A stretch of 64,000 bases of DNA from assembly GCF_054482525.1 (NCBI RefSeq), contig NZ_CM137006.1. One strand, written 5' to 3'. Made by a program: the position numbers. How positions within the stretch are numbered: the stretch's first letter is position 1; each line of letters begins with the position of its first letter. Of the stretch, positions 12,001-24,000 are shown piece by piece.

Positions 12001-15000
12001 TGATCCGGGCCGATTGTTACCCTATGACAAGAGGGATTGCTACAAATATATGTAGCGCGCTCTGCTACCTTACCTACAACGCTTGGAGGAAAGTTGTGCC
12101 TATTTGTCTTGGTCATAAAAGTTATGCTTCTTTGTTTTTTTCATCTATGTGGGGAGAATAAAATCATACTTTTTATATCTGATCCTAGGTCTGACCAGCA
12201 ACCTATTGATCAAAAAACCAAGATATTAGCTAAAAAAAATCAGCATACTTGAGACCAAGCTCAATGTCCGCTCCTCGCTCAAAGCAGACCATTCGCTCAG
12301 TTAACGCATCAGTGTCGTGCTAAAAGTAGACGTGGTTAACAACAATGTGAGTTAATCAACGGAGAGCAGGTCAACTCTAACCTGTATCAAAAAAACAAAT
12401 GTGTCACAAAGATGCCGCATGCCTTAATTTGAGTATAATTGAGACGGAAGTAGACGGTTTATGGCTAAATATTGTTGATATATAGCTATTTGAAGAGTTG
12501 TAGCGCAAGTGTATAGCCCAAACTAATAACGCTACGCCCCTTACCTTTGACGCCTCTTATCAAAGAGCGGCGATGATGCACAGCCCGCACGAGGCAATAT
12601 TCGCACAAGAATCAGGTTCAGAAATAACCTGATCTGGCATGGTGGGGAGAGTATCACTGAGCAGGCTTTCGGTAAAATGCGGCGGGATGAGGTCGGCGTG
12701 GGTTGCAGCAGTACAATGTCGCCCGCAGAGGGTAAGCCACAGCGCGGGATCCTCGGTTTCTATCAGGGATTCGACGAAGTGGGCGCAGTTGTCGACCAAG
12801 GCGGTGAAATCCATAGTGACATTATAAGGAAACGAACAATAGATCGAGTAAATCGCAGTCAGGGACAAGGATTGTAGTCATAGAGAAGTCTCCTGTAACG
12901 GTTTTCAGGAAGCTAATCCCGACGCCTGATTTTGCAGGCGCGGAAGGAGAAGATACTGCGGCCATTAATCCGCCACAAGGCATTTACGTGCATAAATCGC
13001 GCAGTCAAATCCGACTCCCACTGTAGTTCTTGAACCTGATACCACATTTAGCTAATTTAGCTAACTTATCTATTATACCAGTGGTTGCCATGAATATGAA
13101 TGAAGACGAGATTTATCGCCATATCCGGCAGGCACTTTCCAGTGCGCCTCGTAACCAGTACACCGTCGAGCTGCACCTGCAAATGATTAAATATGCCGAC
13201 AAACTGGAACACATTACGGCAAAAGCCTTTTGCGAAGGCACTGGTCTGAACCAGAGCCTCGGTACCGAATTCAGCAAAATGCGTAACTTAACCCATCGGT
13301 TAAAGGCCGCCGGTCTGAATACCGATCTGCTGTAACCGACTTACGGCACATTATCGCGCAAAACGAGATATTTAATGGCTATCAAAAAAACCGAACTCTA
13401 TTCTTCCCTGTGGGCAAGCTGCGACGAACTGCGTGGCGGGATGGACGCCAGCCAGTACAAAGACTATGTACTGACCCTGCTGTTTATGAAGTACGTTTCC
13501 GATAAGTATAAAGGCGATCCTTACGGGATGATCGTGATACCCAAAGGAGCCAGCTTTGACGATATGGTTGCGCTGAAAAATGACAAAGAGATCGGCGACA
13601 AAATCAACAAAATCATCCACAAGCTGGCGGAAGAGAACGGCCTGAAGGGCGTCATCGACGAAGCCGACTTTAACGACGAAGATAAGCTCGGCAAAGGCAA
13701 GGAAATGATTGACCGCCTGAGCAAGCTTGTCGGTATCTTTGAAGGGTTAAATCTCTCCAGCAACCGGGCCGAAGGCGACGATCTGCTGGGCGATGCCTAT
13801 GAATATCTGATGCGTCACTTCGCAACCGAATCCGGTAAGAGTAAAGGGCAGTTTTACACTCCAGCGGAGGTGTCACGTATTCTGGCGAAGGTGATTGGTA
13901 TTACTCCCGATACTCCGCAAGATGCAACGGTTTATGACCCAACCTGTGGCTCTGGTTCGCTGCTGTTGAAAGTGAATGATGAAGCCCGGCGCGGACTGTC
14001 GATTTTCGGCCAGGAGATGGATAACGCTACCAGTGCGCTGGCGCGGATGAACATGATTCTGCATAACAATGCCACCGCGAAAATCTGGCAGGGCAATACG
14101 CTGAGCGATCCGCAGTGGAAAGAGGCGAACGGCAAACTGAAAGCCTTCGATTTTGCCGTGGCGAACCCGCCTTTTTCCAATAAAAACTGGACCAACGGGC
14201 TGACGCCGAAAAAAGATCCGTTTGAACGCTTCGGCTGGGGTATTCCGCCGGAAAAAAACGGCGATTATGCTTTTTTGTTGCATATCATTAAAAGCCTGAA
14301 AAGTACCGGCAAAGGCGCGGTGATCCTGCCCCACGGCGTACTGTTTCGCGGTAACGCCGAAGCGAATATCCGTGAAAATCTAATCAAGCAGGGCTATATC
14401 AAAGGCGTTATTGGTTTGCCAGCCAACCTGTTTTACGGCACCGGCATCCCGGCGTGCATCATTGTGATTGATAAAGAGCACGCCCACAGCCGCAAAGGCA
14501 TTTTTATGATCGACGCCAGCCGGGGCTTTATCAAAGATGGCAACAAGAACCGCCTGCGTAGCCGAGATATTCACCGCATTGTGGACGTGTTCAACCATCA
14601 GCGAACGGTACCTGGCTACAGCCGGATGGTGCCCTCCAGCGAGATCGCCGGAAATGATTACAACCTGAATATTCCTCGCTATATCGAGAGCGGCGAGCCG
14701 GAAGATTTACACGATCTGACCGCGCACTTACAGGGCGGTATTCCGGCACGCGATGTGGATGCTTTGCAAGATTACTGGCGGGTATTCCCTGCCCTGCGCA
14801 ACGTGCTGTTTGCTGACGACCGTCCCGGTTACTGTCGGGCGCAGGTGAACGCGCAACAGGTGAAACCGACCATTCTGGCGCATCAGGAGTTTAAGGATTT
14901 TGCCACCCGCAGCCTGCTACCGTTTAAAGCGTGGGTGAAAGAGGCAAGTCTGGAAGAGATTCGCAAAGGTGATAAACCCAAAGCGCTAATCCACGATATC

Positions 15001-21000: not shown

Positions 21001-24000
21001 GTTTGATGATTACGATCGGGACGATGTGGCCGGGTTGCTGAAAGACAGGCTGGAGCAGGCGCAACTGGATCTCGACAGCGCGCTGGAGATGGTTCGCAGC
21101 TTATGTGAACCCGTCAAAACCCCGCGCAGCCTGCTGGACTATCAGCACTATTTTTGCGGTGAATCAGGAGAGAATCAGACTTCGTTAAACGAAAAAGAGG
21201 CGCTGCGCCTGACATTTTACCAGTGCGTCGCCCGTCTGCTACGCGCTTATGCCAGCATCGCCAATGAAATGCCGGAAGCAGGCTACACTGCCGAAGAGGT
21301 AGAGAGCATTCGCGCCGAAGTCGCTGAATTCGAAAAACTGCGCTATGAGATTAAGCTGACCAGCGGCGATCTTCTGGATATGAAGCGCTTTGAACCCGCT
21401 ATGCGTCATTTACTGGATATGTATGTTCGCGCCGATGGTAGCGAAGTGCTGATGGATTTTGAAGAGTTAAGTCTGATTGAACTGATTGTCGAGAAAGGCT
21501 TGGCGGCGACCGTCGCCCTGCCGGATGATATCCGTAATAATCAGGATGCGATGGCGGAAACCATCGAAAACAACGTGCGCAAAACCATCGTGGATGAAAA
21601 CCCGGTTAACCCAAAATACTATGGACGCATGTCGCAGCTGCTGGATGAACTGATTACCCTTCGCCGACAAAATGCGCTCAATTATCAGCAGTATCTGGAA
21701 CGTATCCGCGATTTGTGTAAACAGGTCATCCGCCCGGAGCAAACCGCCGGAGCGTGCTACCCTGCCACCATGGATACACAAGCAAAGCGCGCCTTCTATG
21801 ATAACTTCGGCCACGACGAGGTACTGGCGACCCGCATAGATACGACGATTCGCTATACCAAAAGGGCAGAGTGGATTGGCGATCGTTTTAAAGAACGGGA
21901 AATTGCCAACGCATTACGTGAAGAGACCGCCAGCTATAATATTGATATTGATGAGGTGATAGCGCTTGCCCGTCAGCAGAAGGAATATCACTGATGCCAA
22001 TCATGCAAATAGGCTCGTTACACTTGCTGGTCAACCGTAAGGCGATTAAGAATCTGCATATCAGCGTGCTGCCGCCTGATGGCAAAGTACGCGTTTCAGC
22101 GCCGGAACATATGACGGAGACGGCGATTCGTATGGCGGTTGCTTCACGCTTTCGCTGGATCAGAAAACAGCAGCAGGATTTCGCCAGACAGCCTCGTCAA
22201 TCAGAGAGGGAAATGGTCAGCGGAGAGTGCCACTATCTTTGGGGCCGAAGATATCGCCTACTTGTGATTGAGCGTCACGGGCGTCACGAAGTAAAAGTTG
22301 CAGGAAATAATAAGCTCCAGCTTTATGTTCAACCAGGAACCCGTGATGAAAATAAGGCATTGGCGTTAAGTGAATTTTATCGACATGAACTAAAACAGCA
22401 GGTGGCTAAGCTTCTACCTGAATGGCAGGACCGAATCGGTGTTCCCCTAACATTCTGGGGCATCAAAAAGATGAAAACCTTTTGGGGCACCTGTAACACT
22501 ACAACAAAACGAATCTGGCTCAATCTGGAGCTAATTAAGAAGCCGCCGGAGTGTCTGGAGTATATTCTGGTGCATGAACTGGTTCATCTTCTGGAACGTC
22601 ACCATAATGCTCGCTTCCGGTTGCATATGGATCGGTTTATTCCTGACTGGCGTGAGCGTCGGGATTTGTTAAATAATATGCCGTTAGCGTTTGAGGCATG
22701 GGAGTATTGATTGAGCCTGTAACTGTTTTTTGTCCATAAATTAACCTTCATTTGATGCTGGATTGAACATATCAAAATCAGACAATTACACAAATCTATG
22801 TACAGGCTCTTCAATTTGTTTTTGATCGCTGATGTGACTGACAACAAACGCTCACGGAACACTAAATCCCGCTCTTCAGACGTTAACTCGCCTCGCTCAA
22901 TAAGCTCTCTGATAGAATCTCGTGGCGTTGGCGTGACTACTTCAAAACAAAAAGTCTCACCATTTTTCTCGGCGACAAAGTCTGGTCCAGCATCCTTGCT
23001 TTTAATGTCGCTAAAGCCCATCTCCATAAGGTAGCCTGAGTTTAACGGACACTCCTTCGTAAGGACGCTGTAAGCAGAAACGCAAGTTCAGAGCGACTAC
23101 GAACTCGAACCACAATCTGCCAGTTGCGCCAAATCTGCTGAACCAGACGTTCGCTCCTACAGCACCAAATCAGGTCTGGGTGGCGGACCTGACGTATGTT
23201 GCCACACAGGAGGGATGGTTGTACCTCGCTGGCATCAAAGATGTTTATACGTGCGAAATTGTCGGCTACGCCATGGGAGAGCGCATGACAAAAGAGCTGA
23301 CAGGTAAAGCCCTGTTTATGGCGCTCAGGAGCCAGCGCCCACCTGCCGGGCTAATCCATCACTCTGATCGAGGTTCACAGTACTGCGCATACGATTACCG
23401 GATCATACAGGAGCAGTTTGGTCTGAAAACGTCAATGTCGCGTAAAGGTAACTGTTACGACAACGCTCCGATGGAAAGCTTCTGGGGAACGCTGAAAAAT
23501 GAGAGCCTGAGCCACTATCGTTTTAATAACCGGGATGAAGCCATCTCAGTAATACGGGAATACATTGAGATTTTCTACAATCGTCAGCGTCGTCACTCTC
23601 GTCTGGGGAATATCTCCCCGGCAGCCTTCAGGGAAAAATATCATCAGATGACTGCTTAAAAAAGAACAAATGGTAGTGTCCGCTATTGCCAGTACACCTC
23701 AGGTATCAAAAAGCGATAGATGCAGCTAATACACGACATAACCAAGAAATAAATCATTAAACGACAACACTTAATACCATATTGTGAAGATGTTCAGACA
23801 TGGCGGAATTCCCCTATTCTTTGTTGGCACTTACAACAGACTATATTCCGCCATATCTGTCTTTATTGTGTATAAACCATCGATACTGATGTTTGATAGT
23901 GCTAAATAATCATTGGCGCAATCACAAAGCCTAATGCCACTCCAGCAATAATTCCCCCCAACCCAGGCAGCATAAATGGATGATTCAGCACATATTTGCC

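Follow-up and report, generated by a model that had tools for sequence, protein, structure and literature searches.

We describe here a DarTG-type toxin–antitoxin (TA) pair that lies between hsdS and hsdR of a type I restriction–modification (R-M) operon, in a 64,000-nucleotide stretch of an Escherichia coli chromosome (RefSeq assembly GCF_054482525.1, contig NZ_CM137006.1; the whole stretch is hereafter called the window). A latent toxic effector in this position has a precedent in EcoprrI, where Levitz et al. are said to have placed prrC between hsdS and hsdR in 1990; PrrC is a tRNA-Lys anticodon nuclease that is silenced by binding to the R-M enzyme, without a separate antitoxin. DarTG was described inside the type I R-M operons of Thermaceae, Thermus aquaticus among them (Jankevicius et al., Mol Cell 2016; PMC5179494). 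The closest known system is a seven-open-reading-frame (ORF) island of enteropathogenic E. coli (EPEC) E2348/69, designated RRDM (RptR-RMS-DarTG2-M48; Zhang et al., Nucleic Acids Res 2025; PMC12255303), which in its entirety confers on E. coli protection from several phages (PMC12255303).

Much is known about the parts of the EPEC island. Its DarT ADP-ribosylates single-stranded DNA (ssDNA) at TTT/TCT and stalls replication, its DarG both reverses the modification and sequesters DarT, and toxicity and rescue were reconstituted without R-M genes (PMC7003065). A macrodomain antitoxin, rather than a NADAR antitoxin, is the mark of DarTG2 as opposed to DarTG1 (PMC12255303). RptR dimers bind TAGCTA repeats cooperatively and through them repress the island promoter, two sites being enough for repression, and infection raises hsdM mRNA more than 15-fold (PMC12255303). 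The locus in the window is an allele of this island, and the finding is in that respect already known and not new. The original prediction, made from the sequence of the window, had read the locus as two layers of defence, restriction plus a DNA ADP-ribosylation TA pair; this agrees with the near-identical EPEC island, for which the same reading is already published.

Results

Gene content and order of the island

Families were assigned by profile searches with NCBIfam, Pfam and PADLOC, with curated cutoffs of 150 bits for DarT and 250 bits for DarG. Six co-directional ORFs on the + strand lie where the original prediction had placed hsdM, hsdS, darT, darG, hsdR and an M48/DUF45 peptidase, and ORFs and profile matches, all scoring better than the curated cutoffs, agree on all six. 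The extent then proposed, 13375–22710, holds for these six ORFs, but the unit starts farther upstream, with a promoter at 13030 and rptR at 13096–13335. Two gene starts were also revised: GTG at 15807 for hsdS and 17801 for darG (359 amino acids, aa) gave way to likelier ATG codons at 15813 and 17813 (355 aa), which are preferred because RefSeq uses both and because the alignments to hidden Markov models and to PDB entries start at that Met. The resulting features are as follows.

12263..22809: conserved island segment common to the window, EPEC E2348/69 and E. coli 28RC1 (blastn; homology except in the hsdS target-recognition domains)
13096..13335, + strand: rptR, 79-aa repressor, first gene of the island; 76/79 residues identical to PDB 9R2Z chain A (E = 5.7e-47)
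13375..15813, + strand: hsdM, type I methyltransferase subunit, 812 aa; TIGR00497, 282.8 bits; Pfam N6_Mtase and HsdM_N
15813..17147, + strand: hsdS, specificity subunit, 444 aa, 39% GC; PADLOC Specificity_I, 436.8 bits, full length 9–445
17160..17816, + strand: darT, DNA ADP-ribosyltransferase toxin, 218 aa; NCBIfam NF048013, 262.6 bits (cutoff 150)
17813..18880, + strand: darG, ADP-ribosyl glycohydrolase antitoxin, 355 aa; NF048014, 451.1 bits (cutoff 250); N-terminal macrodomain
18899..21994, + strand: hsdR, type I restriction/translocase subunit, 1031 aa, TTG start; TIGR00348, 545.6 bits; PADLOC REase_I, 1634 bits
21994..22710, + strand: YgjP-like (DUF45)/M48-annotated zinc metallopeptidase, 238 aa; Pfam PF01863 (formerly DUF45), E = 1.6e-61

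The seven genes, all full length, follow the order of the EPEC island, rptR-hsdM-hsdS-darT-darG-hsdR-M48. Homology by blastn between the window and both EPEC and 28RC1 begins at 12263/12264 and ends at 22809, and the flanks outside this segment depend on the strain. Identity to the EPEC proteins is 96.2% for RptR (substitutions N2D, N52S and H67R), 97.7% for HsdM, 98.6% for DarT (215/218; Q97R, D139N and A213S), 99.5% for HsdR, and 100% for both DarG and the M48 protein, against 39% for HsdS, in which both target-recognition domains (TRDs) share only 15–22%. By this gene-by-gene identity, with the HsdS TRDs replaced, the window contains a specificity variant of the published island, which was characterized by experiment. 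The features by which the island is recognized are all found in the sequence here: a 79-aa RptR encoded first, at least two predicted RptR-type sites overlapping the -10 box, and the gene order.

As the original prediction had it, gene boundaries overlap or nearly so. The hsdM/hsdS junction is a 1-nt overlap (TGATG), as is that of hsdR and the M48 gene, and the toxin gene darT lies directly upstream of the antitoxin gene darG with a 4-nt ATGA overlap (17813–17816). Gaps of 12 nt (hsdS to darT) and 18 nt (darG to hsdR, with AAGGAG ahead of the TTG start) surround darTG, and 39 nt separate rptR from hsdM. A scan of 12700–23300 with generic sigma-70 promoter and intrinsic-terminator models returned 13 promoter-like sites, compared to 11.4±3.5 in shuffled sequence, and 15 terminator-like sites, compared to 12.5±3.8; there is no excess of either within the operon, and the scan neither supports nor excludes internal promoters. 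Nor was a canonical + strand terminator called 3′ of the M48 stop, up to position 23300. From the tight junctions and the lack of excess internal promoter-like or terminator-like sites, we infer that the seven genes are carried on one transcript.

Base composition was considered as a mark of darTG being foreign to the operon and was set aside, the GC fraction of darTG (0.52–0.53) being the same as that of hsdM and hsdR (0.52–0.53), with hsdS alone AT-rich. Repeats around the island were limited to short, weak pairs, such as a 29-nt inverted pair with 76% complementarity (11302/22944), which was treated as chance.

The DarTG2 pair

The original prediction had staked its case on the toxin and antitoxin families, and both assignments stand. 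The 218-aa product is recognized as DarT by NF048013 (262.6 bits), by Pfam PF14487 (DUF4433; E = 3.4e-53) and by the PADLOC DarT model (247.8 bits). It possesses G49 and the catalytic E170, the latter within ERYQAEALIWQ and aligned with the Ala position of the deposited PDB 7OMV chain. Of the corresponding substitutions, E160A inactivates the T. aquaticus toxin (PMC5179494), and E170A abolishes the activity of EPEC DarT (PMC7003065).

The 355-aa product (359 aa from the start first proposed) is DarG with an N-terminal macrodomain, matching NF048014 at 451.1 bits, Pfam Macro PF01661 with E = 4.7e-21 and the T. aquaticus DarG macrodomain 5M31 with E = 3.3e-55. Residues N22 and K80 are present; Lawarée et al. 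(PMC7003065), whose numbering is shorter, refer to K80 as K54. Residues 187–355 match the DarG chain of PDB 7YK3 (7YK3_B; E = 5.5e-13), an entry whose chain A was matched by DarT. The C-terminal half is assigned as the DarT-binding domain, the whole protein being 100% identical to EPEC DarG, for which sequestration of DarT was demonstrated. Toxin domain, catalytic Glu, macrodomain, C-terminal domain and coupling of the two genes are thus all present, and by these sequence characters the pair belongs to DarTG2.

Restriction genes and metallopeptidase

Profile matches identify all three subunits of a type I R-M system, namely HsdM, an N6-adenine methyltransferase, an HsdS with two TRDs, and HsdR, which combines nuclease and SF2 translocase. 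HsdM carries a C-terminal extension of ~360 aa (residues ~451–812; 14725–15813), for which no Pfam domain and no relative among PDB sequences were found; within it, positions 15134–15522 lack nucleotide homology between DarTG-bearing and GmrSD-bearing frames (see below). Allele comparisons make two variable TRD blocks of HsdS visible. Because both TRDs differ from those of EPEC, the recognition sequence is expected to differ as well. Compared to 28RC1, only TRD1 differs (~22% identity over residues 41–200), with TRD2 100% identical, and DarT, DarG and the M48 protein are identical between the two strains. The TRDs therefore vary, one with respect to 28RC1 and both with respect to EPEC, around a cargo that is unchanged, which amounts to specificity shuffling around that cargo.

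The peptidase possesses the zinc motif HELVH at residue 194 and, in addition to PF01863, a weaker SprT-like match (4.3e-6). It was placed by Pfam alone, with no match in NCBIfam or PADLOC, and phmmer against PDB sequences returned no solved relative. In frames with different cargo its homologs are 71% identical to it; the peptidase thus accompanies the frame irrespective of the cargo, which makes it a component of the R-M frame rather than of DarTG.

The exchangeable hsdS–hsdR slot

The limits of the embedded module became apparent from comparison with a homologous frame, that of E. coli A29.

17134..18899, + strand: exchangeable cargo cassette, comprising darTG and two short junctions; defined by the homology break with the A29 frame

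The window and A29 are homologous at the nucleotide level up to 17133 (the hsdS stop follows 14 nt later) and again from 18900, at the hsdR start, which fixes the bounds of the cassette to the base. A further 32 E. coli records contain an hsdR with 60–80% nucleotide identity to that of the window, and the three inspected (A29, PEC408 and 600055) share the arrangement hsdM-hsdS-(DUF262 protein and GmrSD-like protein)-hsdR-M48, with a GmrSD-like pair instead of darTG. The cargo proteins of the A29 type match PADLOC HEC-06-like GmrSD models, and the frame proteins of the GmrSD-bearing strains have 71–79% aa identity to those of the window. A29 and PEC408 each have an annotated rptR-like gene, the 5′ end of 600055 being truncated by the insertion sequence (IS) IS1, and the A29 promoter contains two TAGCTA sites 9 bp apart. 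The presence of a GmrSD-like pair in a homologous E. coli frame bears out the earlier claim that other modules use the hsdS–hsdR slot, and a restriction-type module in the sister frames indicates that the slot collects defence cargo.

Two further contexts bear on the relationship of darTG to its host operon. In the Meiothermus taiwanensis plasmid pMtWR-220 (1775–13632), the order is hsdM-HEC-05-like-hsdS-darT-darG-HEC-01A/B-like-hsdR, so that three modules are embedded in one operon: a DUF262/HEC-05-like gene between hsdM and hsdS, and both darTG and a HEC-01A/B-like pair (ATPase and DUF4276) between hsdS and hsdR. The embedding of darTG in type I R-M operons recurs, then, in a distant phylum. 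Conversely, plasmids of Zymomonas, Moraxella, Sulfitobacter, Burkholderia and Bacillus carry DarTG2 as a free-standing pair, without R-M genes close by. As judged from these gene arrangements, darTG is autonomous cargo and not a subunit of the restriction enzyme.

Repressor and promoter

Upstream of rptR, the promoter elements of the EPEC island are recognizable.

13030..13035, + strand: -35 box TTGAAC, identical to the EPEC -35 needed for promoter activity (PMC12255303)
13050..13058, + strand: -10 box AGCTAATTT, the functional -10 in PMC12255303; 14 bp 3′ of the -35
13047..13073, + strand: RptR operator array, with TTTAGCTAA at 13047–13055, TTTAGCTAA at 13056–13064 and CTTATCTAT at 13065–13073

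RptR retains E25, E58, S60, K61, L69, A72 and L74, the residues highlighted in the EPEC protein for DNA binding or dimerization. The predicted RptR sites, TAGCTA at 13049 and 13058 and TATCTA at 13067, are 6 bp long, occur in a 9-bp register and overlap the -10 box; TATCTA is one of four variants expected to permit RptR binding (PMC12255303). The promoter is intact, as are two canonical operators. Near-identity to EPEC, where repression was shown, suggests that RptR controls this promoter as well.

The operator arrays of the two islands differ in length. In EPEC, three copies of TTTAGCTAA are followed by CTTATCCAT, as seen both in the electrophoretic mobility shift assay probe (supplement to PMC12255303) and in the EPEC island sequence, and the window has one 9-bp repeat fewer, the next unit, CTTATCTAT, carrying TATCTA. 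The exact EPEC promoter form occurs in only 4/243 records, all of them E2348/69 or O127:H6, and the two-repeat form of the window is the common one. Variation in the copy number of the 9-bp operator repeat may tune how readily the promoter is repressed.

In the island of E. coli 28RC1, rptR has a 69-bp deletion that breaks the reading frame (12197–12361 in the 28RC1 locus; alignment columns 303–371) and is annotated as a pseudogene, with hsdMS-darTG-hsdR-M48 intact. This island offers a natural test of repressor loss.

Distribution

At a threshold of at least 80% query coverage, the 9.3-kb block is present in 247/5426 complete E. coli genomes, corresponding to ~4.5% of sequenced E. coli, and it is 100% identical in several strains. 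The darTG lineage of the window was found in 248 E. coli genomes, leaving one darTG copy without the whole block. RefSeq already annotates darT and darG at the E. coli locus. The arrangement is not due to chance.

Surroundings of the island

The variable stretch 8877–12262, on the rptR side, differs between strains that have the same RRDM island. It includes a 250-aa ORF on the - strand (11364–12116) with an N-terminal HNH-endonuclease-like region, which matched PADLOC PDC-M68A (83 bits) and effector endonuclease models of the cyclic-oligonucleotide-based antiphage signalling system (CBASS), and which had no Pfam or NCBIfam match; unassigned ORFs reported with it are at 9379–10062, 10417–11202 and 12560–12868. 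The stretch containing the HNH-like ORF may represent further defence cargo.

A Mokosh type I system occupies 42933–50649 on the - strand, with mkoB at 42933–44369 (PADLOC MkoB, 503 bits) and mkoA split into 44366–47557 and 48832–50649 (MkoA, 1453 and 692 bits). The interruption is a 1310-bp insertion of the IS3 family at 47683–48992 (Rfam ALIL pseudoknot, 120 bits; IS3 transposase, 315 bits), and strain AH62, which is otherwise near-identical, has an uninterrupted mkoA (1652 aa).

An Rfam tRNA match at 28624–28691 on the - strand barely exceeds its threshold (30.7 against 29 bits) and has no counterpart among ARAGORN calls; it probably marks a fragment of a tRNA within the mosaic island. Nearby, at 27861–28205, are matches to the IS200-associated small RNAs STnc490/STnc100. 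The island end at 56870–59870 begins with a tyrosine integrase (56870–58073, - strand) and contains two copies of a tRNA-Ser 3′ end with its terminator (59547–59600 and 59727–59780), which resemble att repeats; ARAGORN found no tRNA in the window. An orphan remnant of a type I-F array of clustered regularly interspaced short palindromic repeats (CRISPR), with two repeats and one spacer (~59783–59870), adjoins the clpA side. In AH62, the same island is joined to phoH/efeUOB instead.

Discussion

We consider it highly probable that the locus is an RRDM allele organized as a seven-gene, translationally coupled operon, with a restriction layer and a DarTG2 layer, in which darTG is an autonomous cassette served by the R-M promoter. 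In such an operon, a single sigma-70 promoter (-35 at 13030, -10 at 13050), overlapped by RptR operators, would be held low by RptR. The first layer would be the type I enzyme, with HsdM2S as methylase and HsdR2M2S as nuclease, cutting incoming DNA that lacks the strain-specific methylation. In the second, DarT would ADP-ribosylate ssDNA thymidines (TTT/TCT for the EPEC enzyme) and block DNA replication, with the DarG macrodomain removing the mark and DarG also sequestering DarT; infection would free DarT, and the synthesis of phage (and host) DNA would stop. The cassette would fill the slot bounded by the conserved 3′ end of hsdS on one side and the start codon of hsdR on the other, subject to the promoter and regulation of the R-M operon. 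We infer that the two layers are independent and that DarT is released on infection. The biochemistry of DarT and DarG, phage protection by the island and repression by RptR were shown on EPEC proteins that are 98.6–100% (DarT, DarG) and 96% (RptR) identical to those of the window, and by analogy would be expected to hold here.

Several observations temper this reading. Weak promoter-like sites occur in the AT-rich 3′ part of hsdS (16795–16987) and in darT (17717–17745). DarT and RptR each differ from their EPEC counterparts at three residues, function being assigned by homology, and the published phage assays used the whole EPEC island only (PMC12255303). Finally, the linkage of darTG to R-M genes in E. 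coli is largely that of one inherited block, so the 247 genomes are not 247 independent events.

One alternative is that DarTG acts mainly as an addiction module stabilizing the R-M operon or the surrounding island, rather than as an anti-phage layer. Such a stabilizing role was explicitly proposed as an alternative by Jankevicius et al. (PMC5179494), and it would suit an island that lies in a mosaic mobile element containing IS fragments and whose flanks vary between strains; the stand-alone DarTG2 copies on plasmids, moreover, lie beside other TA pairs. However, DarTG1 and DarTG2 members moved into E. coli give robust phage defence (LeRoux 2022, cited in PMC12255303), and in sister frames the slot is filled by a GmrSD-like module of restriction type. 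Stabilization and defence can also coexist, and we regard addiction as the main role as improbable.

A second alternative couples DarTG to the restriction enzyme, either as a guard fired by anti-restriction proteins, in the manner of PrrC in EcoprrI, or through cross-talk between methylation and ADP-ribosylation. Its slot is reportedly the one that prrC holds in EcoprrI, and essentially all darTG-bearing E. coli genomes have darTG embedded. In addition, 'crosstalk' was raised as a possibility for DarTG (PMC5179494), and Vibrio TgvAB alone protected 10–100-fold less than within its full cluster (PMC11411939). Nevertheless, inheritance of a single block accounts for the linkage in E. coli, the same frame accepts unrelated cargo, DarTG2 pairs with a DarT 53–65% identical stand alone with no R-M nearby, and, as noted above, EPEC DarT toxicity and DarG rescue needed no R-M genes (PMC7003065). 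Coupling of this kind therefore seems unlikely to us. Broader interdependence among the island parts, whereby the YgjP-like/SprT-like peptidase removes RptR or controls HsdR on infection, or the state of the restriction complex gates DarT release, is similarly doubtful.

That the locus is a decaying, non-functional remnant in an IS-ridden island is scarcely credible: although IS600, IS200, other IS fragments and pseudogenes flank it, mkoA in the same window is split by an IS, and damage is seen in other islands (the 69-bp deletion in rptR of 28RC1, hsdS of PEC408 split by IS3, truncated hsdM and frameshifted hsdR in 600055), the locus itself has seven full-length ORFs with intact catalytic motifs, an intact promoter with two canonical operators, DarG and M48 proteins identical to EPEC proteins that are called experimentally active, and a block 100% identical in several unrelated strains.

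Read as an RRDM allele with two layers, the locus is a textbook case of 'defence within defence': restriction first, an embedded abortive-infection toxin second, and one small repressor. It is of practical value for predicting how susceptible to phages the island-bearing E. coli are, ~4.5% of those sequenced. DarT2 is also being developed as a genome-editing tool (PMC13368585).

How the locus relates to known systems can be set out from the most distant to the closest. With EcoprrI-PrrC it shares an hsdS–hsdR slot of a type I R-M operon that holds a latent toxic effector; unlike PrrC, DarT is paired with an antitoxin of its own, DarG, and needs no R-M genes for its activity. TgvAB of Vibrio cholerae VPI-2 (Vibrio pathogenicity island 2) is GmrSD-like and is likewise a defence module of two genes within a type I R-M operon (PMC11411939); closer still is the A29-type frame of E. 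coli, with homologous rptR-like, hsdM, hsdS, hsdR and M48 genes and two TAGCTA operators. The cargo of both is nonetheless a modification-dependent, type IV-like restriction pair and not a TA pair, and TgvAB targets hypermodified phage DNA, whereas DarT targets ssDNA thymidines (PMC11411939).

Thermaceae DarTG agrees with the window in the placement of darT-darG after hsdS and before hsdR and in the conserved catalytic Glu and Lys, and the Meiothermus plasmid has that gene order too. Thermaceae DarT is, however, only ~30% identical, with a DNA motif of TNTC versus TTT/TCT, and the Meiothermus operon contains neither rptR nor the M48 gene and has extra HEC-05-like and HEC-01A/B-like modules. 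The EPEC RRDM island, by contrast, is the same in its seven genes, their order, the style of the junctions, the -35 and -10 boxes, the TAGCTA operators and the segment boundaries (12263–22809). It differs in an HsdS (39% identity) with other TRD1 and TRD2, for which a different recognition sequence is expected, in a promoter with three copies of TTTAGCTAA and CTTATCCAT where the window has two copies of TTTAGCTAA and CTTATCTAT, and in the flanking DNA. To the published island the window therefore adds an HsdS of expected different specificity, the common two-repeat form of the promoter, and slot boundaries defined to the nucleotide.

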